Source: Candidatus Bathyarchaeia archaeon
GTDB lineage: Archaea; Thermoproteota; Bathyarchaeia; Bathyarchaeales; Bathycorpusculaceae
Length of the DNA stretch: 64,000 nucleotides
Reading direction: 5' to 3'
Assembly: GCA_049969855.1 (NCBI GenBank)
Contig: JBMFOB010000004.1
Span: 1-64,000 of the forward strand
The position numbers and the translations under genes were made by a program. Shown here in pieces: positions 31,975-48,612 of this stretch. Within the stretch, counting starts at the first letter, position 1. Every line of letters begins with the position of its first letter. The notes beneath the pieces were generated by a model. That model was not told the origin of the DNA. It made no database searches and saw nothing but the letters and a program-made list of their open reading frames with translations.

Positions 31975-32058
31975 AGGTTTTCACCGCCAAGTTAGGTATG
32001 CTGCTTGGTGTTAATAATTTCTGTGTTTGAATAAATTTTGGTTGTATTAAAAACTAAG

Positions 32059-32682: not shown

Positions 32683-32692
32683 GTGCTTTACC

Positions 32693-34048
32693 TTAGTGGC
32701 TAAAGGTTGAAACTTCGATTTTTTCAGGTTCATAATCTACCAGTTTGCCGCTGAGAAACTGCTCGTAAGCCGTTAGGTCAAGTAAGCCGTGTCCACTGTA
32801 ATTCATTGCAATTATTTTTTTCTCGCCTGTTTTCTTGCATTTTAGTGCTTCATCTATTACATATTTTAGGCTGTGGGCGGTTTCGGGAGCTATTATTAAT
32901 CCTTCTGTTTGGGCTAGAATCTTTGCGGCTTCGAAAACTTCATTTTGACTGTAAGCAACAGAGCGCATATACCCCTTATATATTAGGTATGACATCAAAG
33001 GCGCCATCCCGTGATATCGCAATCCGCCAGCATGTATGGGTGGACAAGCATATCCATGTCCAATTGTTAACATTTTCAGAAGTGGCGTCATTTTGCCTGT
33101 GTCTCCATAATCGTATGTGTAGATGCCTCTTGTTGTGTGGGGAACGGCTTTTGATTCGCAAGCAACAAATTCTGTTTTTGTTTTGCCTTTGAGCTTGTCC
33201 ATCATGAAGGGGAATGCGAAGCCTGCATAGTTTGAGCCTCCGCCTATGCATCCGCAAATTATGTTTGGGTAAATGTCCATAAGTTCGAATTGTTTTTTTG
33301 CTTCTAAGCCTACTATTGTTTGGTGCATGAGAACGTGATTCAGCACGGAGCCTAAAGAGTACCGTGTATCTTCGTTTGTAAGCGCATCTTCAATGGCTTC
33401 TGTGATGGCTATTCCCAAAGTTCCAGGATTGTCTGGGTTTTCTTTGAGCAGTTTTCTGCCGAAATTTGTTTGTTCGCTTGGTGATGGGAACATTTCTGCG
33501 CCGTAAATCTGTGCTATGATTCTTCTGCCTGGCTTTTGGTAATAGCTTGTTTTAACCATGTAGATTCGGCATTTCAGTCCGAAAATGGTGCATGAAAAGG
33601 CTAGGGCTGTGCCCCACTGTCCTGCTCCGGTTTCAGTCACTAGTCTTTTGATTCCTTGTTGTTTGTTGTAGTAGGCTTGTGCAAGGGCGGTATTAGTTTT
33701 GTGGCTTCCTGTTGGGCTGAAGTTTTCGCATTTGAAGTATATCTGGGCTGGTGTTTTCAAATAATTTTCTAGGCGTTTTGCTCTGTAAAGTGGTGTTGGA
33801 CGTGGAAGCCTTAGGTATGCATCGAGTATTTCATCCGGTATTTTTATGTAGCGTTCTGTGGAAACTTCTTGTTTTATGAGTTCTTTTGCGAATATTCTCT
33901 CAAGTAGTTGTGGGCTTATGGGTTTTAGGGTTGTTGGGTCCAATGGTGGTGGTAATGGTTCTGGGAGATCTGCTTGGATATTGTACCATTCTCTGGGTAT
34001 TTCTTCGGGATTTAACTGTGTGAAGCTTTCATTAATTTTTGAATGCAT
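32693..34048 (-). CDS. trpB2: Tryptophan synthase beta, TrpB2 type
   Basis: IPREWYNI, RPTPLYRA, GSHKTN (PLP Lys), TETGAGQWG, LGSVLNHV, GGGSN, HAGGLRYHG, APET.H, SGHG. Confidence 0.95.
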   Translation of the reverse strand: MHSKINESFTQLNPEEIPREWYNIQADLPEPLPPPLDPTTLKPISPQLLERIFAKELIKQEVSTERYIKIPDEILDAYLRLPRPTPLYRAKRLENYLKTPAQIYFKCENFSPTGSHKTNTALAQAYYNKQQGIKRLVTETGAGQWGTALAFSCTIFGLKCRIYMVKTSYYQKPGRRIIAQIYGAEMFPSPSEQTNFGRKLLKENPDNPGTLGIAITEAIEDALTNEDTRYSLGSVLNHVLMHQTIVGLEAKKQFELMDIYPNIICGCIGGGSNYAGFAFPFMMDKLKGKTKTEFVACESKAVPHTTRGIYTYDYGDTGKMTPLLKMLTIGHGYACPPIHAGGLRYHGMAPLMSYLIYKGYMRSVAYSQNEVFEAAKILAQTEGLIIAPETAHSLKYVIDEALKCKKTGEKKIIAMNYSGHGLLDLTAYEQFLSGKLVDYEPEKIEVSTFSH

Positions 34049-34161
34049 ACAGATGTCCCCTTATGTATATTTTTGTTCATTTGCGTATGATATTATACTC
34101 AAGACAACACGAACATATTTATACTTTACTGCACAAAAAAGTACATGAAGGAATCTGTAAC

Positions 34162-34665
34162 ATGTGGAGCAAAATTGCAAAATGCCTAGAAGACTATCCA
34201 GAACGGCTCAAAGTAGCTCGAGTTCTCGTAGAAAATGGACTGAGCGTGAGAAACGGAAAAATCTATCTTAACGAAATTGAAGTTCCACCGGTTCGCATAG
34301 CAAGAGTTGCTGGAGTAGACAGAAGAACAGTGAACGAGACGCTGAATGCTATCCGCACAAACCGCGAACTTAAGCCAATTTTTGAAGGGTTAAGGTCTGC
34401 TGGGCATTCTTTAAAGGAGATTGCTAAACATTTGGATTTGGGAGTTGTTGAAATAACTCCTGTTGATGCACGAATTCCGGGCATACTTGCAAGCTCCGCC
34501 TCAATTCTTGCGAATGCTGGTTTGAGTATAAGGCAGGCGATAGTTGATGATCCAGAGTTGTCGCCTGAGCCTAAATTAACTTTGATTGTTGAGAGAAAAA
34601 TTCCAGGCGAATTGATTCCAGAATTTCTAAAAATAAAGGGAGTGGCTAAAGTTTCAATTTATTAA
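34162..34665 (+). CDS. ACT-domain regulator of amino-acid metabolism (COG2150-like)
   Basis: MW..I...YP..VAR..GL, IARVAGVDRRTV HTH, C-terminal ACT (PGILA...SIRQAI.DDP); start ATG 34162. Confidence 0.85.
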   Translation: MWSKIAKCLEDYPERLKVARVLVENGLSVRNGKIYLNEIEVPPVRIARVAGVDRRTVNETLNAIRTNRELKPIFEGLRSAGHSLKEIAKHLDLGVVEITPVDARIPGILASSASILANAGLSIRQAIVDDPELSPEPKLTLIVERKIPGELIPEFLKIKGVAKVSIY

Positions 34666-34749: not shown

Positions 34750-36732
34750 ATGCCTAGGATAGGCGTTTATGTTTGCCACTGCGGTTTGAACATAGCTGGA
34801 GTTGTTGATGTAGAGAAGGTGGCTAATTATGCTGAGAAGTTGCCAGATGTTGTGGTGGCTAGGCATTATGTTTACATGTGTTCTGAAACTGGACAGCGCA
34901 TGATAAAAGAAGACATTAAAGCGCATAACCTTAACCGAATAGTTATCGCCACATGCTCGCCGAGAATGCATGAAGAAACTTTCCGCAGAACCGTTGCTGA
35001 GGCAGGCTTAAACCCTTACCTTCTTGAAATCGTCAATTTGAGAGAACATGTCTCTTGGGTTCACAGCGAAGAGCCAGAAAAAGCAACGGAAAAAGCTAAA
35101 GACCTTGTGAAGATGGGCGTAGCACGTGTTAAACTTTTGGAGCCTTTGGAAAAGCGAAGGGTTAGCGTGGAGAAAAGTGTTTTAGTTGTCGGCGGCGGGA
35201 TTGCTGGGATACAGGCTTCGTTGGATTTGGCTGATGCTGGTTTTAGAGTTTATCTTGTTGAGAAGGCGCCTAGCATTGGCGGGCGCATGGCACAGTTGGA
35301 CAAGACTTTTCCAACCCTTGATTGTAGTGCTTGCATTCTCACTCCTAAAATGGTTGATGTTGCAAGACACCCAAAAATAACATTGTTGACGAATTCTGAG
35401 GTTACAAATGTTAGTGGGTTTGTTGGAAATTATGAAGTTTCAGTTGTAAAGAAGCCCCGTTATGTGGATGAGAAAAAATGTGTTGGTTGCGAACTATGCA
35501 CTCAAGTTTGTCCAGTTAAGGTTCCAGACGAATTTAATGAAGGCTTAAGCCAAACACGCGCAATATCAGTTTATTCTCCCTATGCCGTGCCAAAAGTAGC
35601 CATAATAAACCCAAACCATTGCCTAAGACTGAAATATGATAAAGATGTTTGCGGTAAATGCTTAAACGCATGTGAAGCAAAAGCCATAAACTTTGCACAG
35701 CAACCAGAAGAACTTAGGCTTAAAGTGGGCGCCATAATCTTGGCTGTTGGAGCGGAAGTTTTTGACGCTTCTAAAATGCCAGAGTTAGGATATAAACGAT
35801 ACAAGAATGTAATATCCAACATAGAATTTGAAAGGATTTTGAATGCTTCTGGACCTACTAAAGGAGAAATTTGCCGCCAAAACGGCGAGCCTCCGAAAAC
35901 TATCGTTTTTGTTCAATGTGTGGGTTCCAGAGACAAACGTTTTCATGAATATTGCTGTCGTGTAGGGTGTATGGCAACTTTAAAACAAGCAATTCTTGTT
36001 CAAGAAAGGTTAGGAGAAAACGTGAAAATTTATGTTTGCTTTAATGATATGCGTGCTTTTGGCAAGGGATATGATGAGTTTTATAGACGAGCAAGAGAGT
36101 TAGACATAGAATTTGTTGCAGGGTTGCCATCAGACATTCGAAGCGCTTCGGACGGTTCACTTTACTTTGATGTTTACGATAAAGGAACAAACAAGCTTTT
36201 GGAAATGCGACCAGACTTAATTGTTCTAGCGAACGGATTAGTTCCAAACAGCGACCTTGAAAAAGTAAGCGCCCTATTCCATGTCTCAAGGAGCGCCGAT
36301 GGTTTTCTTTTAGAGGCACATCCAAAACTGCGACCTCTAGAGAGTTTGACAGCTGGAATTTTCATTGCGGGTTCTTGTCAAGGACCTAAGGATATACCAG
36401 ACACTGTTGCCCAAGCCAGCGGGGCAGCAGCAAAAGTAATCGACCTTTTGGCGAGTGGGGTAATTGAGCTTGAGCCTTTAACAGCGGTTATTGATAAGAA
36501 CTTATGCAGTGGTTGTCAAGTTTGTGAGCCGCTTTGTCCGTTTTTTGCGATAGAAATGAAAACGGAAACCGTGGAAGGTGTGGAAAAAGTTAAAGCGGAA
36601 ATTATTGAAGCCATGTGTCAAGGCTGTGGTCTCTGCGTTTCAGCATGTCCCACCAAAGCAATCAAAATGCGGCATTATAATGATGAGCAATTTCTGGCGC
36701 AAGTTCAAGCATGCTGTTCTGAAAGGAGGTAA
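34750..36732 (+). CDS. hdrA: Heterodisulfide reductase subunit A (flavin-based electron-bifurcating subunit)
   Basis: RIGVYVCHCG.NI, CSPR.HE, GGGIAG, DKTFPTLDC..CI, QCVGSR, CCRVGC, EAHPKL, two ferredoxin domains. Confidence 0.96.
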   Translation: MPRIGVYVCHCGLNIAGVVDVEKVANYAEKLPDVVVARHYVYMCSETGQRMIKEDIKAHNLNRIVIATCSPRMHEETFRRTVAEAGLNPYLLEIVNLREHVSWVHSEEPEKATEKAKDLVKMGVARVKLLEPLEKRRVSVEKSVLVVGGGIAGIQASLDLADAGFRVYLVEKAPSIGGRMAQLDKTFPTLDCSACILTPKMVDVARHPKITLLTNSEVTNVSGFVGNYEVSVVKKPRYVDEKKCVGCELCTQVCPVKVPDEFNEGLSQTRAISVYSPYAVPKVAIINPNHCLRLKYDKDVCGKCLNACEAKAINFAQQPEELRLKVGAIILAVGAEVFDASKMPELGYKRYKNVISNIEFERILNASGPTKGEICRQNGEPPKTIVFVQCVGSRDKRFHEYCCRVGCMATLKQAILVQERLGENVKIYVCFNDMRAFGKGYDEFYRRARELDIEFVAGLPSDIRSASDGSLYFDVYDKGTNKLLEMRPDLIVLANGLVPNSDLEKVSALFHVSRSADGFLLEAHPKLRPLESLTAGIFIAGSCQGPKDIPDTVAQASGAAAKVIDLLASGVIELEPLTAVIDKNLCSGCQVCEPLCPFFAIEMKTETVEGVEKVKAEIIEAMCQGCGLCVSACPTKAIKMRHYNDEQFLAQVQACCSERR

Positions 36733-37248
36733 TTGAGTATGGGTTTAACAGATTTAATGTCAATGGCTAAACCCAACATGGAAGTGCGTGAAAAATTTTT
36801 GTCAAAGCTTGGCAACAAAGAACTCATTAACTGTTTTCAATGTTTAAAATGCACCAGCGGATGCACAGCGTTAAAACTTTTAGAGTTGAAGCCTCATGAA
36901 ATAGTTAAACTTGTCAATTTTGGCTTTGTGGATGAATTGGCGTCGTCGGAAATAATTTGGACTTGTGTAACATGCCTAAAGTGTGTGCAAAGGTGCCCAC
37001 AGAAAGCCTCACCATACCACACGATAATGGTTCTTAGGAATATGGCTGTTGAAAAGGAAGTGCAGATACCTGAAGAATACTTGAAAGCTTTCTCAAGAAT
37101 TCTCGAAACAGGCTTGGCTGAAGCACCTCAAGAAGTCACGACAAAAAAGATGGAAGTTTTTGATCGTAAAAGTCTAAAGTTGCCAAAAATCAACCTTCCA
37201 AAGGAGAGTTTTCAAGCAGCGTTTATGAAAATTATGGAGGAGAAATAG
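36733..37248 (+). CDS. hdrC: Heterodisulfide reductase subunit C
   Basis: CFQCLKCTSGC and WTCVTCLKCVQRCP 2x[4Fe-4S] motifs. Confidence 0.9.
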   Translation: MSMGLTDLMSMAKPNMEVREKFLSKLGNKELINCFQCLKCTSGCTALKLLELKPHEIVKLVNFGFVDELASSEIIWTCVTCLKCVQRCPQKASPYHTIMVLRNMAVEKEVQIPEEYLKAFSRILETGLAEAPQEVTTKKMEVFDRKSLKLPKINLPKESFQAAFMKIMEEK

Positions 37249-38124
37249 GTGAAACTTGCTGTTTTCTGGGGCTGTCGCATATTAACAAGTCAGTACGCTT
37301 ATGAAATGTCTGTTCGAGAAGTTTTCAAAAAACTAAACATAGAACTTGTAGATCTATCCGAAGCTAATTGTTGTGGAGACCCGATAAAAAGCATAAAAGA
37401 CCCCGCAGCAAACTATTTAGCCATTAGAGTTTTAGCCCTAGCAAACTCGACAGGTTTAGATGGTTTGCTTGTGCCATGCAATCGTTGCCACTTTGCCATT
37501 TCAGAAGCAAAAAACGTTGCGAACAAAAACAAGAATCTTAACGAAAAAATCAAGGGCTTGCTGAAGGAAGAAGAATTAGAGTATAACGCTAACATTAAAA
37601 TTTGGCACATAATCGACTTTCTGCACGACTTTGTTGGCTTAGATTCTATTAAAAAAGCAACACAAAAGCCTCTTAAAGATTTGCGGTTGGCAACGCATGT
37701 TGGTTGCCAAATCATTCGTTACAGCGACCTTGGAAGGGTTGATGATGCGGAGAATCCTCGAAAACTTGATAAGTTAGTGGAGGTTCTTGGAGCGAAAACG
37801 GTGGATTACGCTGAAAAACTGGATTGTTGTGGTGCACCTTTAATGTATAGTCATCCCAGTTCTGCTCTTTCTCTTGCTGGCGCTAAAATTAAGGCTTTAA
37901 CGAGTTTGGGTGTTGACGGTTTGGTTATTTCTTGTCCCGATTGTGGTTTGATGTTTGATTTTAGGCAGAAGGATGCAGTGGCGACTGTTGGAGCAAAAGC
38001 CAGTCTTCCAGTGATTTATTATACGCAGCTTCTTGGTTTAGCCTTAAACATCGAAGCAGAAAAACTTGGTTTGCATCTTAACCAAAGCCCTGTGGAGCAA
38101 CTTTTAATGAAAATTTCTGCTTAA
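37249..38124 (+). CDS. hdrB: Heterodisulfide reductase subunit B
   Basis: Two CCG domains: WGC..NCCG..PCNRC and HVGC..DCCG..SCPDC.MFD. Confidence 0.92.
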   Translation: MKLAVFWGCRILTSQYAYEMSVREVFKKLNIELVDLSEANCCGDPIKSIKDPAANYLAIRVLALANSTGLDGLLVPCNRCHFAISEAKNVANKNKNLNEKIKGLLKEEELEYNANIKIWHIIDFLHDFVGLDSIKKATQKPLKDLRLATHVGCQIIRYSDLGRVDDAENPRKLDKLVEVLGAKTVDYAEKLDCCGAPLMYSHPSSALSLAGAKIKALTSLGVDGLVISCPDCGLMFDFRQKDAVATVGAKASLPVIYYTQLLGLALNIEAEKLGLHLNQSPVEQLLMKISA

Positions 38125-38181
38125 ACGCTAAACAACTTTTATATTCCAAGTTTAAAAATAGAAGCTTCAAGGTGAAAGTTT

Positions 38182-39399
38182 ATGGTTGATTTCAGTTTCA
38201 CAGAAGAGCAAGAGCTTTTCCGCAAAGCATTGAAAGAATGGTGCGAGAAAAATTTGTCCCTTGAAAAAATCAGAGAGATGGATAGTAAAGGCGAAATTCC
38301 GAAAGAAATTTTGAAGAGCATGGCTGACTTGGGCTTGCTTGTCATGACTGCGCCGCAGGAGCATGGTGGAACAGGCGCTGACTGGGTTACTGCCTGTATT
38401 GCTGGAGAAGAGTTGGGTTATGCTGACATTAGTATTGCTATTCCAGTGCTTTGGCTTGTGGAATCTTCTTGGGGCTTTGTTGTTGACAGATACTGCACAG
38501 AAAAAGTTCGTGAAACAGTTATCCATCCGGCAATAAAAGGCGAAGCCTTCATAGGCATAGCTTCCACGGAGTCTGGCGGCGGCTCTGATGTTGCAGCCTT
38601 CAAATCCACAGCCCGTAAGGAAGGAAACGATTGGATTTTGAATGGAGAGAAAATGTACATTAGCGGAACTGAAGAAGCCAAAAAACTTGGCGGAGGCTAC
38701 TTTGTCGTTGCCAGAACTTCGCCTGCACCTCCAGAAGCGCCACATCGTGGGATGACGGGCTTTTACTTGCCAATAAATGCTTCTGGGGTTGAAATTAACA
38801 AACGCTTTGATGATATGGGGCGGATGGCGATTTCCACTGGCGGTTTTATGATGAAAAATGTTAGGATACCCGACTCATATCGCCTTGGTGAAGTGGATAA
38901 AGGCTTCTATTTAACCATGGAAGGTTTTGACAATGCAAGAATATTGATAGCAGCAGTCTGCATTGGAGCTGCGAGAAGGGCGCTTGACATTGGAATGGAA
39001 TACATTAAAGAGCGGAAGGCTTTCGGCAGACCTATCGGAAAATTTGAGGGAATACAGTTTGAATTGGCGGATGATTGGGCGCAACTTGAGGCTCTGCGTT
39101 CACTCGTTTATCGAACCGCATGGATGAACGACAAAAAGTACAAGGAAAACAAATTCACACCATTAGAAGTTAGCAGAATGATTGCTGCTTGCAAACTGAT
39201 GGCGCCGCATTTCGCCTTCGACGTTTTCAAGCATGCAATGATTTGGCTTGGCGCCTACGGTTATACCAAAGAATGCCCATTAGAAATGGGATTGCGTGGA
39301 ATAATGTCTTACTGTGTCGGGGCTGAAGGAGCCACAAACATTCAAAGAATAGTCATAGCAAGAGAACTTTTAGGCAAAGACTACATACCCTACAAATAA
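38182..39399 (+). CDS. Acyl-CoA dehydrogenase
   Basis: DF.FTEEQ, TE..GGSD, LNGEKMYIS, R.AFGRPIGKF.GIQF, GAYGY, EGATNIQR. Confidence 0.94.
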   Translation: MVDFSFTEEQELFRKALKEWCEKNLSLEKIREMDSKGEIPKEILKSMADLGLLVMTAPQEHGGTGADWVTACIAGEELGYADISIAIPVLWLVESSWGFVVDRYCTEKVRETVIHPAIKGEAFIGIASTESGGGSDVAAFKSTARKEGNDWILNGEKMYISGTEEAKKLGGGYFVVARTSPAPPEAPHRGMTGFYLPINASGVEINKRFDDMGRMAISTGGFMMKNVRIPDSYRLGEVDKGFYLTMEGFDNARILIAAVCIGAARRALDIGMEYIKERKAFGRPIGKFEGIQFELADDWAQLEALRSLVYRTAWMNDKKYKENKFTPLEVSRMIAACKLMAPHFAFDVFKHAMIWLGAYGYTKECPLEMGLRGIMSYCVGAEGATNIQRIVIARELLGKDYIPYK

Positions 39400-39410
39400 T
39401 CCCATTATTC

Positions 39411-39424
39411 ACATTTTCTTTTTT
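39411..39424 (+). terminator. Oligo-T archaeal terminator candidate after the hdrACB-acd operon
   Basis: ACATTTTCTTTTTT just after the acd stop. Confidence 0.4.
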
Positions 39425-39527
39425 AATGAAGTTTACTGTTTTCGCCAGTTCCTTCATCATGCAGGAAACCATTAACGCATGAGCATGCTTGTACTCTTAA
39501 CAAGCCTTAAGGCTTCATCTTAAGAAG

Positions 39528-39908
39528 ATGAGCTTAAGTTGCCACGTCTCGACCGTCATAATTTCGTGGGTGGGGTATATGACTGGCTATGTTTCTCTCC
39601 AAACAACTGTCGAATTCTCAGTTATCGCGTTGCTGCTTGTAGGTTCAACCCACGCTCTCCGACGTTTCGTTTCGACTTCTTTCCCCAAGTGGCAATTTTT
39701 CAGGCGAGTTGTCTTCGTCCTGTGCGGCATTTTCTGGATTGGTTTCTTTTTATGGAGAATTTCCGTGATTGCCCTAAGACAAGTGTTCGGTTTAAGTGCA
39801 GATACCTCAGCATTCCTAGCGTTACCATGTTACCTACTGGGAGCCTACATTGCAGACAAACTAGAGAAGCGCACGCGTATGCATACACGCCAAAGGACAC
39901 ACTCCTAA
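39528..39908 (+). CDS. Hypothetical small membrane protein (about 3 TM)
   Basis: Three hydrophobic segments; codon style differs from neighbours; start may be ATG 39579. Confidence 0.45.
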   Translation: MSLSCHVSTVIISWVGYMTGYVSLQTTVEFSVIALLLVGSTHALRRFVSTSFPKWQFFRRVVFVLCGIFWIGFFLWRISVIALRQVFGLSADTSAFLALPCYLLGAYIADKLEKRTRMHTRQRTHS

Positions 39909-40103
39909 CAGAAAATGCATTGGTTTTCCAAATTTTTAGAACAGCTTCTTTTAATGTCTCCTAAGAGAATGTTGTTAGTTCTTTGGTTTTAAGGAAAAGT
40001 ATAAGTTTTTAGAGCGGTATAGAAGGAACCATTGGGAAAATAGGAGGAAAAACTAGAGAGGGTAGGTCGCGTATTGGTTGTTTTTAAGCCCAAAAATATG
40101 TTG

Positions 40104-41054
40104 TTACCGCAGTTGCTTCTTTAATGCTTCTTTCAGTGCTGGCAGTATCTCATATAAGTCGCCTACAACGCCGTAATCTGCAACCTCAAATATCGGCGCA
40201 TTCTCATCCTTGTTAATAGCCACTATCACTTTCGCATCTCGAATTCCGGCTACGTGCTGAATTACGCCAGAAATTCCACAAGCAATGTAAAGTTTTGGCT
40301 TAACCTTATGTCCAGACAATCCAACCCATTCTGTGAACCATTTTCTATCCTCAACTAAGGGTCGTGTGTTGCCAACTTGCCCGTTCAGAATTTTTGCCAA
40401 CTCTTCTAGTAAAGCAGTGTCTTCTTTCTTTTCTAATCCTCTTCCGCAACTGACTATTACATCTGCGTCTTCAATTCTTACGCTTGAAATTTCGATGGGT
40501 TTTGTTTCTATGATTTCTGTTTTTGGTGCTTCAATTTTTGCGTCGAATTTTATTATTTGTCCATTGCGGTCTTTTGGCTGAAGTTTTTCAAATGTTCTTT
40601 GGGGAATTGTTGCTATTTGTGGTTTTGTTTTGAAGGTTATTTTTGCAGTGGCGTTTCCGCCGTATGTTATTCTTTCGCCTATTAGCCTTCCCTGTTCGTC
40701 AACATTTAGCCTATTACAGTCGGGGATGCATCCAGTTTGGAGGCGAGTTGCAAGTTTGGCTGCGAGGGGTTTTCCATTCCTTGTTGAGCCTATTAGTATT
40801 ATTTCAGGTTTGTAATCTATTACGAGACTGTGTAAAACGCTGAGGTATGGTTCCATTTGAAAATGTGTCAAGGCTTGATTTTCGATTAGAAAAACTTTGT
40901 CTGCTCCATGTTTTATTAACTCGTTTGCCCTTTCTTGAACGTTATATCCAATCAGAACAGCCGCCAACTCTTTTTGCAATTTATCCGCTATTTCTCTTCC
41001 TTTCCCAAGCATCTCTAAAGTCAAATCGTGCTTTTCAGAATAAACCAGAATCAT
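40104..41054 (-). CDS. etfA: Electron transfer flavoprotein alpha subunit
   Basis: GAD.V, YGGN, VIVSCGRG, GLSG..VKP.LYIACGISG.IQH.AG, AINKD.NAPIF; start ATG 41054. Confidence 0.95.
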   Translation of the reverse strand: MILVYSEKHDLTLEMLGKGREIADKLQKELAAVLIGYNVQERANELIKHGADKVFLIENQALTHFQMEPYLSVLHSLVIDYKPEIILIGSTRNGKPLAAKLATRLQTGCIPDCNRLNVDEQGRLIGERITYGGNATAKITFKTKPQIATIPQRTFEKLQPKDRNGQIIKFDAKIEAPKTEIIETKPIEISSVRIEDADVIVSCGRGLEKKEDTALLEELAKILNGQVGNTRPLVEDRKWFTEWVGLSGHKVKPKLYIACGISGVIQHVAGIRDAKVIVAINKDENAPIFEVADYGVVGDLYEILPALKEALKKQLR

Positions 41055-41058
41055 TTTT

Positions 41059-41847
41059 TCACCTTCCAACAACGCCTTCCTCAACCAAAGCCTTAACCAA
41101 TTTGTCGGCAATCTCTTGCGCTGTTTCGCCAGTTATTTTCACTCTTTTTCGTTCCGTTTTTGGAGCCAAAACTTCCATTACTTCAATTTTTGTATCAAGC
41201 TTTTCTTTTTGAAGGTTCAAGTCTGCAGCAGTCCATGTTGTTATTTCCTTTTTTGAAGCTTTCATTATCATCATAAGCGATGGAATTCTAGGCTGGTTTA
41301 TTTCTCTCGTAACCGATATCAAAGCTGGCATTTTCACTTTTACAGTTTCAATGGCGTCTTCAATGGCTCTTTCCACAATAACCGCATCACCTTCCACAGA
41401 AATTTTTCTAACAGAAGTCGCCTGCGACAAGCCAAGAAGCTCCGCCAATCTTGAACTGACAAGCCCTGAAAAGCTATCCAAGGAGGTTTCGCCGCATAAT
41501 ATCAAGTCAAAGGTTCCGATTTTTTTGATTGATTCTGCAAGAATATAAGCGGTGCCTAAAGTGTCTATGTCTTTAAAGTTGGGGTCGCTAATCATGTAAG
41601 CCTTGTCTGCTCCCATGGCGAGGGCTTCTCGCAGAACAGTTTTTGCATCTTCAGCGGTGACTGTTACGGTTAATATTTCAATGTTGCCAATTTTCTCCTT
41701 AATCCTTATAGCTTCTTCTAAGGCGTTTTTGTCAAAATCGCTTATTTTCTTGGCTGCACCAGCAGTTATTAATTGTCTTGTTGTTGGGTCAACTTTTAAC
41801 TGTGAAACGTCAATTGCTTGTTTGAGGCAAACAATTATTCTATTCAA
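41059..41847 (-). CDS. etfB: Electron transfer flavoprotein beta subunit
   Basis: IIVCLKQ, FDKNALEEA, LREALAMGAD, DTLGTA, DLILCG..S.D, INQPRIPS; start TTG 41847. Confidence 0.95.
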   Translation of the reverse strand: MNRIIVCLKQAIDVSQLKVDPTTRQLITAGAAKKISDFDKNALEEAIRIKEKIGNIEILTVTVTAEDAKTVLREALAMGADKAYMISDPNFKDIDTLGTAYILAESIKKIGTFDLILCGETSLDSFSGLVSSRLAELLGLSQATSVRKISVEGDAVIVERAIEDAIETVKVKMPALISVTREINQPRIPSLMMIMKASKKEITTWTAADLNLQKEKLDTKIEVMEVLAPKTERKRVKITGETAQEIADKLVKALVEEGVVGR

Positions 41848-42010
41848 TAATTTTCCCTTCTGATAATGGGTTGTTAGAAAACCTAAATTTCTGGTGCTTG
41901 TAAAAAACTTTTGCTCTGATAACTCTAATGTTTTAATGGTGCAATTTTGTTGTGGAAAGGAAGTGAGTGTGCATAAAAATTTATTAGCGTATGTTTTTAA
42001 AGTCTCCCGC

Positions 42011-43126
42011 ATGGAAGAAGCGAACATAGTTATTATAGGCGCTGGCATAGTTGGCTTGGCTGTAGCTGCAAAACTTTCCGAAAGGAATGAAGGAGTCTAT
42101 ATTTTAGAGAAAAATTCAAGGTTTGGACAAGAAACAAGCACGCATAACAGTGGAGTAATTCATTCGGGTATTCATTATCCGCCCGGTTCTCTTAAGGCTA
42201 AATTATGCGTTAAAGGCAATTTGATGATTTACGAAATTTGCGAGAAATATATGATTCCATATAAGCCTTTAGGAAAATTGACAGTGGCTATTGAAGATGA
42301 AGAGTTGGAAGAGTTGGAAAAACTGAAGCGTTGGGGAGAGGCAAACGGTGTTGAGGGTTTGAAATTTTTGGAAAGGGAAGATGTTAAGCGGTTGGAGCCA
42401 AATGTTGAGGTTGAAAAGGCGCTTTATTCTCCTTCTACGGGTATTGTTGAACCTGACGAGCTTATGAACTATTTTTATGCCAAGGCTTCTGAGAATGGTG
42501 CAGTTTTGGCTACACAAACAGAAGTAACTGGTTTAAGAAAAACAAACGGCAATTATGAAGTGAGCGGAATCAGTTTAGGCGAAAAATTCACCATAAAAGC
42601 AAAAAGCGTGATAAATTGTGCTGGGCTTTACTCAGACAAAATAGCCACGCTTATTGGGTTGAACGTGGAAAAACTTGGTTATAAATTGCATTATTGCAAA
42701 GGCGATTACTTTAGGCTTATTGGCAAAGCTCCAGTAAAAATGCTGATTTATCCAGTTCCGAAAGGACCAGGATTAGGAATTCACTTGACCCCAGACCTTG
42801 CGGGAGTAGTGAAATTGGGACCAAACGCCTACTATGTGGATAACATCAGCTATGAAGTGAACTCCAGCGAAGAGGAGTTTCGGGAAGACGTCAAAAGATT
42901 CTTGCCATCCATCCGAAACTATGAACTCACACCCGATTTTGCCGGAGTCAGACCCAAACTTCAAGGTCCAAGCGAAGAGTTTAGGGATTTTGTCATAAAA
43001 CATGAGGCTGACAGGGGCTTTTTTGGCTTCATAAATCTTATAGGCATTGAGTCTCCGGGTTTGACGGCGGCGCCAGCTATTGGCGAGTTTGTTTCCGAAA
43101 TCTACGAGAATGAAATTAAGAAATGA
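42011..43126 (+). CDS. lhgO: FAD-dependent oxidoreductase, L-2-hydroxyglutarate dehydrogenase (LhgO)-like
   Basis: IIGAGIVG, TSTHNSGVIHSGIHY.PGSLKA.LC, NCAGL, KGDYF, IYPVP, GIHLT, AGVRP, GIESPGLT; start ATG 42011. Confidence 0.8.
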   Translation: MEEANIVIIGAGIVGLAVAAKLSERNEGVYILEKNSRFGQETSTHNSGVIHSGIHYPPGSLKAKLCVKGNLMIYEICEKYMIPYKPLGKLTVAIEDEELEELEKLKRWGEANGVEGLKFLEREDVKRLEPNVEVEKALYSPSTGIVEPDELMNYFYAKASENGAVLATQTEVTGLRKTNGNYEVSGISLGEKFTIKAKSVINCAGLYSDKIATLIGLNVEKLGYKLHYCKGDYFRLIGKAPVKMLIYPVPKGPGLGIHLTPDLAGVVKLGPNAYYVDNISYEVNSSEEEFREDVKRFLPSIRNYELTPDFAGVRPKLQGPSEEFRDFVIKHEADRGFFGFINLIGIESPGLTAAPAIGEFVSEIYENEIKK

Positions 43127-43223
43127 GAGGTTTAAACAATATTTTCGGGAGTGTTGAAACATAAAATATTAGAATAGAGTTTTATTTTAATGTCAAACAA
43201 AATTGAAAGAGAGGATATGAAAA

Positions 43224-44348
43224 ATGGCTTCTAAAACGTTTTTCTGGCAGGGAAACGAGGCTTGTGTTGAAGCGGCAATAATTGCTGGCTGCCGGTTTTT
43301 CGCTGGTTATCCCATATCTCCTGCAAACGAGATTTCTGAGTATATGGCGGCGCGACTGCCGAAAGTTGGCGGTGTCTTCATGCAGATGGAGGATGAGCTA
43401 GCTTCTATTGGTGCTGTTATGGGGGCGAGTTGGTGTGGAGAAAAGGCTATGACAGCGACTTCTGGGCCAGGTTTCAGTTTAATGCAAGAGACTCTTGGCT
43501 GGGGTTTTATGACTGAGACGCCATGCGTTGTTGTGGATGTTCAGAGAGTTGGACCTGGCACTGGACAAGCCACTAAGGCTGCGCAAGGTGATGTGATGCA
43601 GGCTCGTTGGGGAACCCATGGTGACTATTCTGTTATAGCGCTTTCTCCCAATTCTGTTCAGGAAATGTTTGAACTTACAATTAGGGCTTTTAACTTGGCT
43701 GAAAAATATCGCACGCCAGTCATTGTCTTGACTGACGAGATCATCGCCCATGTTAGGGAGCAAGTTGTAATCCCGCCATTAGAAAATGTCACGATAATAA
43801 ACAGAAAAAAGCCCAAGGCTGAAGACAAAATCTTCTTCGGTTTAGAGAATGTAGCGCCAATGCCATCCGTCGGCGAAGGCTTCAATGTTGCCGTCACCGC
43901 TTCAACTCATGATGAATATGGAGTTCGATTTACGGCAGACCCAAAAGTGCATAGGCGTATGGTGGAAGTCATCAACAACAAGATTAAGAAAAACGTGGAT
44001 GACATAGTGGAAGTTGAAACCTACAACATTGACGACTGCAGAGTGGGCATAGTTTCTTTCGGGTGCACATCCCGAGCAGTTTACGAGGCTGTTGAAACTG
44101 CAGAAGCAGATGGAATAAAAGCGGGTTATGTTCGTTTAAAAACCGTCTGGCCATTACCAGAAAAACAAATCATGCGATTGGCAGAGTCTGCTGAAAGAAT
44201 AATTGTTCCGGAGATGAATCTTGGACAGTTATATTATGAAGTTAAAAGGATAGCGTGTTCAAGGGATGTTGTTTCTTTGAGTAAGATTGGCGGAGGAGAA
44301 ATGATTACGCCTGAGGAGATTTTAGCTGAAATTTTAAGAGGACGGTGA
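43224..44348 (+). CDS. korA: 2-oxoacid:ferredoxin oxidoreductase alpha subunit (2-oxoglutarate-type)
   Basis: GNEA, FFAGYPISP, QMEDE, TATSGPG, QRVGPGTG, HGD, PEMN.GQ. Confidence 0.9.
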   Translation: MASKTFFWQGNEACVEAAIIAGCRFFAGYPISPANEISEYMAARLPKVGGVFMQMEDELASIGAVMGASWCGEKAMTATSGPGFSLMQETLGWGFMTETPCVVVDVQRVGPGTGQATKAAQGDVMQARWGTHGDYSVIALSPNSVQEMFELTIRAFNLAEKYRTPVIVLTDEIIAHVREQVVIPPLENVTIINRKKPKAEDKIFFGLENVAPMPSVGEGFNVAVTASTHDEYGVRFTADPKVHRRMVEVINNKIKKNVDDIVEVETYNIDDCRVGIVSFGCTSRAVYEAVETAEADGIKAGYVRLKTVWPLPEKQIMRLAESAERIIVPEMNLGQLYYEVKRIACSRDVVSLSKIGGGEMITPEEILAEILRGR

Positions 44349-45187
44349 ATGGTATGGGTGAAGCGTTTTCAAGTCGCAGTTATATGAGAGATTTGAGGTT
44401 GCCTTTCTGTCCCGGATGCGGTTTGTTTGCTTTAAGTGACACTTTTCTGAGGGCTGTCTATGAATTGGGCTATAAGGACTTAAGCAATTTCATTTTCACA
44501 AGCGGGATAGGCTGCACATCTTGGATTCCTTCGCCCTATTTCAAGGCTGATTCTGTTCACACGCTTCATGGAAGAAGCATACCGCCAGCAACAAGCATAA
44601 AACTCCTAAAACCCGATTTTCACGTTGTCGTCTTTGGAGGAGACGGCGATATAGTTGGCATAGGTTTAAGCCACTTCATTCATGCTGCAAGGAGAAACAC
44701 GGATATTCTTGTGATAATGGGAAACAACATGGTTTATGGCATGACTGGCGGACAAGTTGCACCCACAACACCATACAAAGCCCACACAACCACAACGCCC
44801 TATGGAAGCTTTGAGCATCCTTTAGACGCTGCAAAACTTGCAGTGGCAGCAGGCGCAGCCTACGTAGCCAGATGGACAACAGCCCATCTCAGCGAATTGA
44901 AGGAGTCAATTAAGAAGGCGATACAACTGCAAGGTTTCAGATTTATTGAAGTTGTAACTCAATGTCCCACAGCCTACGGCAGAAGAATGGGCTTTAAAAA
45001 TGTTGGAGAAATGCTAAGATGGTTTAAGGAAAATTCCATTCCAGTCAAGCAGGCGGAAGGAATGAGCGAAGAAGAATTGGAGGGTAAAATTGTTGTTGGA
45101 GAGTTTGTGGAAAGAAAACGTCCAACACTTGTAGAAAATGTTCATGCTCTGTTGAAGGAGGCGCAGAAAGGTGGCAAAAAGGATTGA
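44345..45187 (+). CDS. korB: 2-oxoacid:ferredoxin oxidoreductase beta subunit
   Basis: FCPGCG, SGIGC, HTLHGR, TPP-binding GDGD...NN.YGMTGGQ, QCPT. Confidence 0.92.
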   Translation: MNGMGEAFSSRSYMRDLRLPFCPGCGLFALSDTFLRAVYELGYKDLSNFIFTSGIGCTSWIPSPYFKADSVHTLHGRSIPPATSIKLLKPDFHVVVFGGDGDIVGIGLSHFIHAARRNTDILVIMGNNMVYGMTGGQVAPTTPYKAHTTTTPYGSFEHPLDAAKLAVAAGAAYVARWTTAHLSELKESIKKAIQLQGFRFIEVVTQCPTAYGRRMGFKNVGEMLRWFKENSIPVKQAEGMSEEELEGKIVVGEFVERKRPTLVENVHALLKEAQKGGKKD

Positions 45188-45701
45188 GATAATAATAGGT
45201 GGAAGTGGCGGTCAAGGCGTTGTCTTAGCTGGGCAAATATTGGGAAAGACTGTTGCATATGAAGGAAGAAAAGTTCTACAAACGCAGAGCTATGGAGCTG
45301 AAGCAAGAGGAAGCCTAGCAAGAAGCGAAGTAATAATTTCAGAAAACCCAATAGGTTTCCCAGCGGTTAGAAAATGTGACATACTAGTCGCTATGAACCA
45401 AGAATCCTTAAATGCGAATCTGCAACACCTTAAGGATGATGGGCTATTGATAGTTGACAGCACCAATGTGCAAGAAATTCTTGAAACGAAGGCGAAAGTC
45501 TACAAAGTTCCCATAACTGAAACCTGTAAGAAAATGTTTGGAGAAGCAACATACGCAAACATGATGATGCTTGGAGTTTTAACCAAACTAACCAAATTGG
45601 TTAGTGGCGAAACTATGAAGAAAGTCATAGAGGAAGTTGTTCCTGCAAAAACATTAGACGCCAACTTGAAAGCCTTCGAGAAGGGTCAAGAGTTAATATA
45701 A
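45171..45701 (+). CDS. korG: 2-oxoacid:ferredoxin oxidoreductase gamma subunit
   Basis: GSGGQG, QSYGAEARG, NM.MLG, N.KAFEKG. Confidence 0.9.
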   Translation: MAKRIEIIIGGSGGQGVVLAGQILGKTVAYEGRKVLQTQSYGAEARGSLARSEVIISENPIGFPAVRKCDILVAMNQESLNANLQHLKDDGLLIVDSTNVQEILETKAKVYKVPITETCKKMFGEATYANMMMLGVLTKLTKLVSGETMKKVIEEVVPAKTLDANLKAFEKGQELI

Positions 45702-45726
45702 CCTACAAAGTTTAATACAATCTTCG

Positions 45727-46845
45727 GTGGTCTTTGTGGAATACGAAATTAAATGCAGCATTTGCGGGCAACCTTCAACCAATCTTTTAGATTTTAAATG
45801 TCCCAAATGCGGTCAGCCTTTAGAAATTCAGAATTTTGTCAAATTTGAACATGAAAAAATTGTAACTAAAGACTATACTATTTGGCGGTATGCAAAATTT
45901 TTCCCGTATGTGAAAAAAGAGGAAATTATCACGTTAGGAGAGGGTTGGACCCCCCTTGTCAATTTCTCAAGCAATGTTTATTTCAAACTTGAAAGTCTTA
46001 ATCCAACCGGTTCTTTCAAGGACAGAGGCTCGGCGGTGCTTTTTTCCGCCTTACATAGGCTTGTGAAAAGGGCTGGTGGATATGTATCTGAGGATTCTTC
46101 TGGTAATGCTGGGGCGTCTATGGCTGCTTACGCTGCTCGTGCAGGTTTGAAGGCGAAAATTTATGTTCCGGAAAATGTTTCTGGACCGAAGTTTAATCAA
46201 ATTCAATTTTATGGTGCAGATGTCGTTAAGGTTTCTGGAAGCCGTAGCAAGGTTGCTGAGGAAGCGCAAAAAACCGAAGCGGGAAAATTCTATGTTGGAC
46301 ACATTTTGCATCCGTTGTTTAGGGATGGAATAAGAAGTCTTGCTTATGAGATAGCTGAACAGTTTGGTTGGCGTGTTCCAGAACGCATTTACTTGCCAGT
46401 TTCAGCTGGCACTTTGCTTTTAGGCGTGATTGATGGATTTAAGCATCTTATCGACTCAAACATTATAGAAAATATGCCAAAAATCGTGGCTTGCCAAACA
46501 CAACAAGTTTCACCCCTTTATCATCAGTTTAAAAACTTAAGATATGCCCCTCCTGAAAAGGTAACATCCATTGCTGATGCTTTGGTGAGTGTAAATCCTC
46601 CACTTTTAGCAGTTATGGTCAAAAAGTTAAGAGAAGCGAAAGGCGATGCTGTTATGGTTGGCGAAAACGAAATATTGGACGCTTTTATGGAGCTTGCTGG
46701 AAAAGGATTTTTTGTTGAACCAAGCTCGGCTGTTGCATATGCAGCCTACAAAAAACAGCTCTTAAATAAGGAAGCGTCAAAAACTGATGAAACTCTCATA
46801 ATTCTTACTGGGATGGGTTTGAAAACTATGCTTAAACCACGCTAA
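45727..46845 (+). CDS. Threonine synthase-like PLP enzyme with N-terminal zinc ribbon
   Basis: CxxC..CxxC, LGEG.TPL, NPTGSFKDRG, EDSSGNAG, EPSSA, LTG.GLK. Confidence 0.85.
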   Translation: MVFVEYEIKCSICGQPSTNLLDFKCPKCGQPLEIQNFVKFEHEKIVTKDYTIWRYAKFFPYVKKEEIITLGEGWTPLVNFSSNVYFKLESLNPTGSFKDRGSAVLFSALHRLVKRAGGYVSEDSSGNAGASMAAYAARAGLKAKIYVPENVSGPKFNQIQFYGADVVKVSGSRSKVAEEAQKTEAGKFYVGHILHPLFRDGIRSLAYEIAEQFGWRVPERIYLPVSAGTLLLGVIDGFKHLIDSNIIENMPKIVACQTQQVSPLYHQFKNLRYAPPEKVTSIADALVSVNPPLLAVMVKKLREAKGDAVMVGENEILDAFMELAGKGFFVEPSSAVAYAAYKKQLLNKEASKTDETLIILTGMGLKTMLKPR

Positions 46846-46912: not shown

Positions 46913-46956
46913 TGTAATGCTGTTTCTCATTGAGACGCATTAGGAGGTTGTTTGGT

Positions 46957-48612
46957 TTGTCATCAACTGCACAAGCTGGAGGAGTTCCAGTCTTAATATT
47001 AAAAGAAGGTTCAAGCCGAAGCAGAGGAAGAGAAGCGCAGCACGCAAACATAATGGCTGCAAGAATTGTGGCTGAAACCGTTAAAAGCGCTTTAGGCCCG
47101 AAAGGTATGGATAAAATGCTTGTGGACAGCTTCGGCGATACAACGATAACAAGTGATGGACGCACAATTTTAGATGAGATGGATATTCAGCATCCAGCAG
47201 CTAAAATGATGGTTGAAGTTGCGAAAACGCAAGACAACGAAGCTGGCGACGGAACAACAACAGCCGTAGTCCTAGCGGGCGAATTACTCAACAAGGCAGA
47301 AGAACTTATTGGAAAAAATGTTCACCCAACAATAATCATTGACGGATACAAGAAAGCCAGCGAAAAAGCATTGGAAGTTTTAGAGAAAATAGCAATGCCA
47401 ACAGGGTCAAACGCTGAAGAGTACTTGAAAAAAGTGGCAATGACTTCCATGGCAAGCAAGTTAGTGGCTGAACATAAACAATACTTGGCTGAACTCGCCG
47501 TTAAGGCTGTTCTTGAAGTTGCAGAGAAAGAAAATGGAGAATACAAGGTGGACATTGATGACATTAAGGTTGAAAAGAAACCCGGCGAATCTTTAAGAGA
47601 TACTAAGCTCATTCAAGGCATAGTTTTGGATAAGGAAGTGGTTCATTCTGGAATGCCTAAGCGGGTGGAAAAAGCCAAAATAGCATTATTGGACACGGCG
47701 TTGGAGATTGAGAAGACAGAGTTTGATGCTAAAATAAACATTGAAAGCCCAGAGCAAATGGATGCTTTCCTCAAGCAGGAGGAGGAAATGCTGCGGGGGA
47801 TGGTTGAAAAGATAGAGGCAATAGGCGCCAATGTTGTTTTATGCCAGAAGGGCATAGACGACATGGCTCAACACTTCTTAGCTAGGAAAGGAATTCTTGC
47901 AGTTCGCAGAATCAAAAAGTCGGATATGGAGAAGCTTTCAAAAGCCACTGGTGGAAAAATAATAACCAACATAGATGACATGAGCTCATCTGACTTGGGA
48001 TACGCAAGCCTTGTTGAAGAACGCAAGATAGGCGACGACAAAATGACCTTCGTTGAAGGATGTAAACATCCAAGGGCGGTTACAATTTTGATAAGGGGTG
48101 GAACGGAACGCATAGTGGACGAAGCAGAACGCTCATTACATGACGCATTATGCGTAGTTCGAGATGTGGTTGAAGAACCAAAAATCTTAGCTGGGGGCGG
48201 AGCTCCAGAGCTTGAAATTTCTCGCATGCTCAAAAAATATGCTGAAACCCTTCCTGGAAGGGAGCAGCTTGCAGTTAAAAGCTTTGCAGAAGCCCTTGAA
48301 GTGGTTCCAGTAACGCTAACAGAAAATGCTGGTTTAGACCCAATAGACATACTGTCAGAATTGCGGGCACGCCACGAAAAAGGTGAAACATGGGCTGGAA
48401 TAGAAGTTAACTCTGGAAAAGTCCAAGACATGAGTGAAGCCGGAGTCTTCGAGCCTTTGGCTGTCAAGAAGCAAATAGTCAAATCCGCCGGAGAAGCTGC
48501 CTCAATGATACTTAAAATTGATGACGTGATTGCTGCTGGAAAAATGAAAGCTCCTCCAACACCGCCGGGTGGCCCACCGGGAGCTGGGTATCCAGGCGCT
48601 GGGGAGTATTAG
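46957..48612 (+). CDS. ths: Thermosome (group II chaperonin) subunit
   Basis: [27 protein letters not shown], Gly/Pro-rich tail; start TTG 46957 after GGAGG. Confidence 0.98.

Follow-up and report, generated by a model that had tools for sequence, protein, structure and literature searches.

A conserved HdrABC, electron-transferring flavoprotein and acyl-CoA dehydrogenase gene cluster in Bathyarchaeia

When fatty acids and amino acids are degraded anaerobically, the thermodynamic bottleneck lies in the oxidation of acyl-CoA to enoyl-CoA. Syntrophic bacteria manage this step with membrane-bound oxidoreductases between the electron-transferring flavoprotein (ETF) and menaquinone (EMO/EtfD) together with reverse electron transport. 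The Bathyarchaeia belong to the most abundant archaea of sediments, and their route for acyl-CoA electrons is not settled. Here we describe a gene cluster in a 64,000-nucleotide stretch of a Bathyarchaeia genome (referred to as the window) that encodes a soluble heterodisulfide reductase (HdrABC) together with an acyl-CoA dehydrogenase (ACAD) and an ETF. The conserved core of this cluster consists of HdrACB, EtfAB and an ACAD, and its constant axis is the pairing of ETF with Hdr.

Among the described systems, electron transfer from an ETF to an Hdr-type cluster is established only for EtfD/EMO, going by the accessible text of the sources (PMC13083937; for EMO, bioRxiv 2024.08.04.606487). There, the acceptor of the ETF electrons is EtfD, a protein with a soluble part homologous to HdrBC, and this precedent supports the idea that an ETF can reach Hdr-type clusters. 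The 12 bifurcating enzyme types distinguished by Poudel et al. in 2018 do not include a combination of ACAD, ETF and HdrABC in the available portion of that work (PMC6085437). In the accessible sections of Qi et al. (2021), etfAB and hdrABC are given only as separate ancestral genes of the Bathyarchaeia (PMC8407382), and in those on Culexarchaeia EtfAB-ACAD and Hdr complexes are proposed as separate entities (PMC9723716). A search of the full-text literature found no published ACAD/EtfAB/HdrABC cluster; subscription reviews of HdrA modules and supplements may hold one.

Genes and encoded proteins of the cluster

The window corresponds to positions 1–64,000 of contig C4 of a 1.28 Mb Bathyarchaeia metagenome-assembled genome (MAG) with 49 contigs and a completeness of 93%. 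Genes were assigned from the list of open reading frames (ORFs) with Pfam and NCBIfam profiles, and start sites were read from the sequence. The gene order is hdrA-hdrC-hdrB-ACAD, followed by a convergent etfBA pair and then by a divergent set consisting of an LhgO-like gene, korABG and thrC. Neither Rfam nor tRNA scans gave a match in the window.

HdrA (34750..36732, + strand) comprises 660 residues with Pfam Pyr_redox_2 and Fer4 domains and has no MvhD domain. It aligns over its full length (residues 2–658) with the solved methanogen HdrA 8rvu_a at 746 bits, in agreement with the HdrA architecture of a thioredoxin-reductase-like FAD domain combined with N-terminal, inserted and C-terminal iron-sulfur domains. 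The NCBIfam HdrA models are its top matches; HdrA2 scores 890 bits against a cut-off of 1100 and is covered at model positions 1–643 of 777, so that the protein ends where the MvhD extension of this model starts. HdrC (36739..37248, +) matches Fer4_8/9/17 and carries two CxxCxxCxxxC motifs for 4Fe-4S clusters (TIGR03290, 71 bits, below the cut-off of 160). Its longest ORF begins with a TTG at 36733, immediately after the hdrA stop codon, and an alternative ATG at 36739 is preceded by GGAGG. We consider the ATG the likelier start. The original prediction had the three hdr genes abutting with zero gaps: this is true of hdrB (37249..38124, +), whose GTG start follows directly on the hdrC stop, whereas hdrA and hdrC may be separated by 6 nt.

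HdrB contains two CCG domains (PF02754 twice) and aligns with the solved subunit 8rvu_b at 165 bits. Residues C9, 41, 42, 77 and 80 as well as C153, 193, 194, 229 and 232 match its cysteines. Nine of these ten cluster cysteines never vary across 76 orthologues, and C232 is conserved to at least 90%. Together with the full-length match of HdrA and the two 4Fe-4S motifs of HdrC, this bears out a complete, soluble HdrABC. Two of the HdrB cysteines are the 'bridging' cysteines that make Hdr clusters catalytic, both of which have been replaced in EtfD (PMC13083937, from the accessible text). Since the full cysteine set including the bridging positions is kept, the HdrB of the window looks like a working disulfide reductase rather than a mere wire. 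No other canonical HdrB was found in the genome.

With respect to possible disulfide substrates, McrA (MCR_alpha) had no match in the 93%-complete genome, and control genomes did match. CoM-S-S-CoB is therefore an unlikely substrate of this HdrABC, and the non-methanogenic setting suggested earlier agrees with the result. DsrC was not found in the genome, and GcvH is present in one copy.

The ACAD gene predicted downstream of hdrB is indeed located there (38182..39399, +). It encodes 405 residues with all three ACAD domains (PF02771, PF02770 and PF00441). The protein falls below the cut-off of every substrate-specific NCBIfam equivalog model; the best matches, each less than half of the respective cut-off, are acryloyl-CoA reductase (227 bits), cyclohexanecarboxyl-CoA dehydrogenase (224 bits) and non-decarboxylating glutaryl-CoA dehydrogenase (197 bits). 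The closest solved structures are 1ukw, rat short-chain ACAD 1jqi and CarC, and the protein would accordingly be classed by similarity as a generic short/medium-chain-like type. The glutamate of its 'AEGATNIQR' stretch lines up with the 'YEG' glutamate of 1ukw and 1jqi, which we take to be the catalytic base. Small insertions relative to solved ACADs are present, for example one of 8 residues near position 320.

The stop codon of the ACAD gene is immediately followed by a T-tract, and a 704 bp spacer (39400..40103) separates the gene from the convergent etfA. An ORF of 126 codons in this spacer (39528–39908, +; weak, sub-threshold Pfam match) was considered as a gene for a membrane partner. 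It had no tblastn match in 79 related loci and 12 relatives' loci, shows no conservation at the level of the genus either and is probably no real gene.

The large ETF subunit is encoded by etfA (40104..41054, − strand; PF01012 and PF00766) and the small one by etfB (41059..41847, −; PF01012; TTG start). EtfA lacks an N-terminal ferredoxin domain. Against solved bifurcating ETFs (6fah_A, 7koe_B, 7qh2_A, 4kpu_A and 5ol2_A) EtfA scores 241–209 bits, against the non-bifurcating 1efp_A and 1efv_A it scores 131–122 bits. The corresponding ranges for EtfB are 160–123 and 114–105 bits. The bifurcating ETFs that outscore the canonical ones comprise CarDE, the A. fermentans and C. difficile proteins, LctBC and Thermotoga EtfABCX. 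Judged by these scores, the ETF of the window is closer to bifurcating than to non-bifurcating ETFs. In bifurcating ETFs, EtfB binds a second FAD where other ETFs have AMP, and an NADH site is present; around the AMP/FAD site, the EtfB of the window appears to deviate from the typical sequence of both ETF types. A complex prediction for EtfA plus EtfB in which HdrB was the partner scored had a score of 0.00 and a mark of 0.32; controls were not folded, and the result is evidence neither way.

Conservation of the Hdr–ETF–ACAD linkage

To obtain orthologous loci, an alignment of HdrB was scanned against one genome per species. This yielded 79 loci, 67 of Bathyarchaeia type (HdrB identity 54–91%) and 12 from Thermoplasmatota (45–51%). 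The Bathyarchaeia loci were thus picked by HdrB alone, and their neighbours were counted by tblastn with the proteins of the window. Within 8 kb, using the 38 Bathyarchaeia loci with at least 5 kb on both flanks, an ACAD was found in 33 and ETF in 28. Directly downstream of hdrB, the ACAD gene is present in 38 of the 52 loci with enough flank. Related Bathyarchaeia genomes are non-independent samples for such counts. Among 40 relatives, 12 possess an HdrB orthologue (at least 51% identity), and the remaining ones contain only paralogues with at most 38%. Two of the 67 loci (L093 and L105) lie on contigs labelled as bacterial MAGs (Acidiferrales and Krumholzibacteriaceae); they carry a Bathyarchaeia-type hdrACB(-ACAD-etfA) with an HdrB identity of 61–67% and are probably mis-binned archaeal contigs. 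One further locus (L102:5728-12040) shows a tandem duplicate of the entire hdrA-hdrC-hdrB set, 66–69% and 59–65% identical to that of the window, with neither ACAD nor ETF within the locus.

In the Thermoplasmatota, ETF is linked in 8 and an ACAD in 7 of 9 well-flanked loci. The order differs from that in Bathyarchaeia: all genes run in one direction as ACAD-etfB-etfA-hdrC-hdrB-hdrA, no more than 50 bp apart in L124. At this locus the genes belong to an operon of about ten genes (L124:6425-19560), in which hdrA is followed by genes for a 1501-residue HdrL-like protein, MvhD, an FrhB-like protein and a polyferredoxin. The HdrL-like protein has ferredoxin, GltD-like and HdrA-like parts (we use the name HdrL for what we take to be a large HdrA with a GltD-like domain), and a methylmalonyl-CoA mutase is encoded upstream of the operon. 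Rearranged variants were also observed within the Bathyarchaeia, namely hdrACB-mvhD-etfBA without ACAD (L090 and L095), etfBA-ACAD-mvhD-hdrACB (L113) and hdrACB-ACAD-korABG (L077). As a control we inspected 20 paralogous HdrB loci of relatives (33–38% identity, 10–20 kb). None of them contained an ACAD or ETF, and in their place we found NfnB-like proteins, MvhD and two HdrA genes.

The linked ACADs are of at least three types, with 80–97%, about 55% or 29–34% identity to the one in the window, while ETF and Hdr stay orthologous. The exchangeability of the ACAD indicates that the coupling lies at the level of ETF and Hdr. Within the first type, the ACAD is 80–97% identical across the L053–L119 genomes where HdrB is 57–91% identical, and it is far more conserved than the Hdr subunits. 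The clade-specific occurrence in two phyla, together with its absence from the paralogous loci, fits the idea of the original prediction that ETF electrons are handled by HdrABC.

The cluster is embedded in a block of genes kept in many Bathyarchaeia, which in the window (30871-34665 and 46930-48612) comprises a DegT-type aminotransferase, a SerK-like protein, TrpB2, a TrpY-like regulator, the hdr cluster, thrC and a thermosome. Unrelated neighbours are found near the cluster in the TrpY-like case in 24 of the 79 loci, for TrpB2 in 23 and for the thermosome in 13, and DegT and SerK-like genes recur as well. Further upstream, the window contains a gene (25391-29074, +) for an archaeal protein of 1227 residues that combines a Ser/Thr protein kinase domain with an AAA_16 ATPase domain and MalT-like TPR repeats.

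Such neighbours raise the question whether co-localisation is all there is. In that case ACAD-EtfAB would be an ordinary Bcd-Etf-like enzyme, HdrABC would work with MvhD partners encoded elsewhere, and their proximity would reflect inherited synteny or shared redox regulation. The retention of TrpY-like, TrpB2, thrC and thermosome genes beside the cluster would be expected then, and the strand of etfBA is opposite to that of hdrACB-ACAD. The genome also offers possible partners. Neither a [NiFe]-hydrogenase nor the MvhD-type [2Fe-2S] adaptor (FlpD) had a match on contig C4, and to this extent the absence of MvhD and hydrogenase noted originally is correct; in the rest of the genome, however, MvhD domains and hydrogenases occur on contigs C14, C22 and C23. 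FlpD has four matches, on C14 and C23, and the MvhD domains belong to two HdrA paralogues and to a double-FlpD protein, with one of the HdrA-MvhD proteins encoded beside MvhGA. The sole canonical HdrBC of the genome might serve these HdrA-MvhD proteins.

On C14 (L009:151-19998), an HdrA-MvhD fusion of 789 residues is followed by an ADP-forming acyl-CoA synthetase (a fusion of ACD and GNAT parts, 934 residues) and by MvhG/MvhA at the contig end. A divergent operon encodes an HdrD-like CCG protein, a thioredoxin-reductase-like protein, the double-FlpD ferredoxin protein, an NfnAB-like pair, etfBA, an ACAD, a 3-hydroxyacyl-CoA dehydrogenase, a second ACAD and an enoyl-CoA hydratase. On C23 (L010:9833-17693), a 2,4-diaminopentanoate-dehydrogenase-like gene and a ferredoxin/GltD-like protein gene precede an HdrA-MvhD of 802 residues, a small two-cluster ferredoxin ORF and a korABG paralogue, 42–52% identical to that of the window. 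The Kor set on C23 thus comes with a delta-type subunit. A 5-oxoprolinase (pxpABC-like) and a group-4 membrane hydrogenase-like cluster are encoded nearby. Genome-wide, ETF/ACAD thus adjoin Hdr-type proteins twice, and Kor adjoins HdrA twice.

Three points exceed inherited synteny. The same families are linked in the Thermoplasmatota in a different, colinear order, and there DegT, SerK-like, TrpB2, TrpY-like and thermosome genes are not among the matches listed (DegT best 25 of 34). The rearranged Bathyarchaeia variants keep ETF with Hdr, and the paralogous loci lack both ETF and ACAD. The Thermoplasmatota operon and the paralogue control speak against mere co-localisation, which we regard as improbable.

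The orthologous clusters differ in further modules. In 11 of the 67 Bathyarchaeia loci HdrA has about 1127 residues (L058:6104-9487; also L057, L060, L061, L073, L100, L104, L108, L110, L111 and L113). Inside their inserted-ferredoxin domain, between residues 290 and 301 of the HdrA of the window, these proteins contain an extra NfnB/GltD-like NAD(P)H module (Fer4_20 and Pyr_redox_2) with a length of about 470 residues. A selenocysteine or an intein as the cause of the split HdrA matches was rejected, because the ORF is uninterrupted over 1127 residues and the extra piece is NfnB/GltD-like. Loci with the insert are scattered over the HdrB tree (FastTree), including the window's own 11-member clade. 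An mvhD gene forms part of, or adjoins, four Bathyarchaeia clusters; among the 12 Thermoplasmatota loci, 8 have one, and the Thermoplasmatota clusters add the HdrL-like and FrhB-like proteins. The lack of MvhD is therefore not a trait of the family; it characterises the commonest variant, to which the window belongs. The modules that vary would be those for a medium-potential carrier, i.e. NAD(P)H, F420 or H2. Their coming and going fits ACAD/ETF as a fixed, different branch.

Proposed electron flow and the LhgO-like and kor genes

Based on the observed gene content, the intact cofactor ligands and the clade-specific linkage of HdrACB, ETF and ACAD across phyla, we propose that HdrACB, ACAD and EtfBA form one soluble flavin-based bifurcating or confurcating unit coupling acyl-CoA/enoyl-CoA to ferredoxin. 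In our judgement the chances for and against this proposal are evenly balanced. The proteins would associate in a complex in which ETF carries electrons between the ACAD flavin (acyl-CoA/enoyl-CoA, high potential) and HdrABC, with the flavin of HdrA as the site of bifurcation or confurcation. In a fermentative, quinone-less archaeon the likeliest direction would be confurcating acyl-CoA oxidation. The high-potential electrons from ACAD/ETF may enter at the HdrBC side, in the same way as ETF delivers electrons to the HdrBC-homologous EtfD. HdrA would join them with low-potential electrons from reduced ferredoxin and thereby reduce a medium-potential carrier. The KorABG without delta subunit, a recurrent neighbour, is a possible source of the reduced ferredoxin; it would provide one ferredoxin pair per acyl-CoA formed, matching a 1:1 confurcation. 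In reverse, the unit would act as a Bcd-Etf-like enoyl-CoA reductase yielding reduced ferredoxin.

The potentials of the enoyl-/acyl-CoA couple (about −10 mV) and of ferredoxin (−450 to −500 mV) have a mean near −250 mV. This would permit the reduction of NAD(P)+, or of protons at low H2.

Two further findings were counted in favour of the unit. The second, paralogous ETF/ACAD cluster on C14 is again located beside a CCG protein (HdrD-like), MvhD proteins and an HdrA-MvhD, and the ferredoxin-reducing KorABG is adjacent in 8 of the 67 loci.

Several observations weigh against it. The full catalytic cysteine set of HdrB argues for thiol/disulfide turnover instead of a wire for ETF only, and the disulfide site would have to find its role in the proposed unit. 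What looks like a bifurcating, NADH-binding ETF is not needed for a simple shuttle. ETF is not found within 8 kb in 10 and an ACAD in 5 of the 38 well-flanked Bathyarchaeia loci, and the linkage counts in this group partly reflect inherited synteny. The variant of the window has no recognisable module for a medium-potential carrier, neither MvhD nor the NfnB-like insert. Finally, 67 EtfA homologues with lengths of 554–2000 residues included no fusion to Hdr, CCG, FlpD or MvhD domains, which is a weak negative; the fusions found were EtfB-EtfA, MTHFR-EtfA, ACAD-EtfA and ECH-EtfA. Three of these proteins (P0004, P0006 and P0010) are of about 610 residues and consist of a methylenetetrahydrofolate reductase domain (PF02219) fused to a full EtfA.

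Some of these observations would be accommodated by the main alternative, a different assignment of roles in which ETF is the NADH-oxidising input of HdrABC and replaces MvhAGD, FdhAB-MvhD or FlxABCD. HdrA would then bifurcate electrons to ferredoxin and to a disulfide at HdrB, and ACAD would be a second, alternative high-potential outlet of ETF. NADH oxidation at the EtfB flavin fits the closer similarity to solved bifurcating, NADH-using ETFs, and the catalytic cysteines of HdrB are kept. The paralogous HdrCB loci have an NfnB-like protein and MvhD where the clade of the window has ETF, which makes ETF look like a replacement, and in L090 and L095 (hdrACB-mvhD-etfBA without ACAD) ETF stands beside the usual HdrA adaptor. 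NADH-dependent FlxABCD-HdrABC has been proposed and would be a precedent (PMC6687939, in the accessible text). Two bifurcating flavins in series would be redundant, however, and 11 of the 67 orthologous HdrA proteins already own an NAD(P)H module besides ETF. In addition, ACAD, directly downstream in 38 of 52 loci, is the tightest-linked gene, and the cluster contains no gene for a thiol/disulfide carrier, nor was DsrC found in the genome. We consider ETF as an input unlikely.

The original prediction extended the circuit to the genes on the other side of etfBA. These are divergent from etfBA across a 163 bp intergenic region (41848..42010), exactly as predicted. The LhgO-like FAD-dependent oxidoreductase (42011..43126, +; PF01266 DAO, ATG at 42011) is followed by korA (43224..44348, +; POR_N and PFOR_II) for the alpha subunit of a 2-oxoacid:acceptor oxidoreductase, korB for the TPP-binding beta subunit (44345..45187, +; TPP_enzyme_C), korG for the gamma subunit (45171..45701, +; PF01558 POR) and the threonine synthase gene thrC (45727..46845, +; PRK06450, 453.3 bits, cut-off 301). 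In the circuit envisaged, the LhgO-like enzyme would oxidise L-2-hydroxyglutarate to 2-oxoglutarate with ETF as acceptor, KorABG would convert the product to succinyl-CoA and reduced ferredoxin, ACAD would act on acyl-CoA derived from C5-dicarboxylates, lysine or glutamate, and all ETF electrons would leave via HdrABC.

Both in the window and in two genomes of its genus, korA is preceded at a distance of about 100 bp by the LhgO-like gene, which is divergent from etfBA; LhgO and L2HGDH are the best named families for the product of this gene. The pairing of a 2-hydroxyacid dehydrogenase with a bifurcating ETF has a precedent in lactate dehydrogenase-EtfAB (PMC5736913, in the accessible text). 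Nevertheless, the score of the LhgO-like protein with the NCBIfam LhgO model NF008726 is 248.8 bits, below the cut-off of 299, with the best stretch at model positions 2–269 of 389, and that with the model of type-2 glycerol-3-phosphate oxidase is 215 bits (cut-off 460). The closest structures are 3dme (function unknown), followed by Drosophila L2HGDH 8w75 and GlpO 4x9m. The protein is thus best described by similarity as a putative member of the LhgO / type-2 GlpO / L2HGDH group that stands hardly farther from type-2 glycerol-3-phosphate oxidase than from LhgO, and its designation as a 2-hydroxyglutarate oxidase could not be upheld. The gene is linked to the cluster in 2 of the 67 loci, both from the genus of the window.

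For KorA only the generic model PRK08659 passes its cut-off (538.6 versus 411 bits); the 2-oxoglutarate-specific model reaches 354.7 of 579 bits, so that these scores assign no particular substrate to the Kor enzyme. KorB scores 216.9 bits with PRK11866 (cut-off 402) and 196.5 bits with the 2-oxoglutarate-specific model (cut-off 364). Over the six frames of the 64 kb window, the ferredoxin motif CxxCxxCxxxCP turned up three times in HdrA, once in HdrC and nowhere else, which confirms the lack of korD; none of the 8 orthologous korABG sets has a ferredoxin motif near its kor genes either. Two- and three-subunit 2-oxoacid:ferredoxin oxidoreductases (OFORs) without delta subunit are known. In one locus (L077) hdrACB-ACAD-korABG apparently form one operon.

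In the 29 Bathyarchaeia loci with flanks of 9 kb, the LhgO-like gene was present in 1 and ThrC in 9, and KorA lay within 10 kb in 5; among all 67 loci ThrC was found in 14. Kor was absent from the 7 well-flanked Thermoplasmatota loci, and ThrC from all 12. Probably, thrC is a conserved chromosomal neighbour outside the redox module. Whereas HdrACB, ETF and ACAD are kept in two phyla in different orders, KorABG, with its 8 of 67 loci, is no regular part of the cluster, and the LhgO-like gene even less often accompanies it. The proposed substrates find no support in the ACAD either: 3mpi, a solved glutaryl-CoA dehydrogenase, ranks 27th among 28 structure matches, and the score with the glutaryl-CoA dehydrogenase model NF045552 (cut-off 470) does not stand above the other matches. 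Succinyl-CoA, the product of the Kor step, is to our knowledge not a known ACAD substrate. The C5-dicarboxylate, lysine or glutamate pathway is a guess, weakly supported by the data, and we consider it very unlikely.

Comparison with known systems

If the proposed unit of HdrACB, ACAD and EtfBA exists, quinone-free Bathyarchaeia and Thermoplasmatota would oxidise acyl-CoA by confurcation with reduced ferredoxin, or run the reaction in reverse. A soluble HdrABC wired to ETF/ACAD would then be a cytoplasmic alternative in quinone-poor sediment archaea to the membrane-bound route, and a new partner set beside the types of Poudel et al. It could also hint at a role of HdrB in organisms without CoM-S-S-CoB. 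Going one step further, ACAD-EtfAB-HdrABC may constitute an undescribed class of flavin-based bifurcating or confurcating enzymes that dispenses with the MvhD adaptor, has ETF docked directly on an Hdr subunit and receives its third partner from NAD(P)H, F420 or H2 modules; this we put forward as a tentative and rather doubtful possibility. With six compact, conserved genes, the hypothesis is directly testable by heterologous expression.

In the MvhAGD-HdrABC and FdhAB-MvhD-HdrABC complexes of methanogens, electrons from H2 or formate are bifurcated to ferredoxin and CoM-S-S-CoB. The HdrA, HdrC and HdrB of the window are canonical in comparison, with the HdrB cysteines and the HdrC motifs present. 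In contrast to these systems, the locus has no mvhD, hydrogenase or formate dehydrogenase genes and is linked to ACAD and ETF instead, and no McrA, which would go with CoM-S-S-CoB, was found in the genome. FlxABCD-HdrABC, HdrA2B2C2 (NADH or F420H2) and HdrL-type systems resemble the cluster in that HdrABC operates outside hydrogenotrophic methanogenesis with exchangeable donor modules. FlxABCD-HdrABC and HdrA2B2C2, however, use an MvhD-type adaptor (FlxD or a fused MvhD) and contain neither ETF nor ACAD.

From the side of the flavoproteins, the Bcd-EtfAB, CarCDE and LctBCD complexes of Firmicutes are the nearest relatives. They likewise combine an ACAD with an ETF, the ETF of the window scores highest with them, and CarC is among the top ACAD matches. 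Unlike CarE and LctC, EtfA is devoid of their N-terminal ferredoxin domain, and the cluster adds a complete HdrABC. EtfD, EMO, FadF and DgcB, finally, are HdrD- or HdrBC-like iron-sulfur CCG proteins that oxidise ETF and feed menaquinone. As in these, ETF is paired in the window with a module of the HdrC and HdrB type, here judged from gene linkage. In contrast to EtfD, as far as it is described in the accessible text, the system has no membrane or haem domain, keeps the bridging cysteines that EtfD has lost and possesses an HdrA that EtfD lacks. The parts, i.e. the HdrABC, ETF, ACAD and OFOR families, are known; their combination appears to be new.

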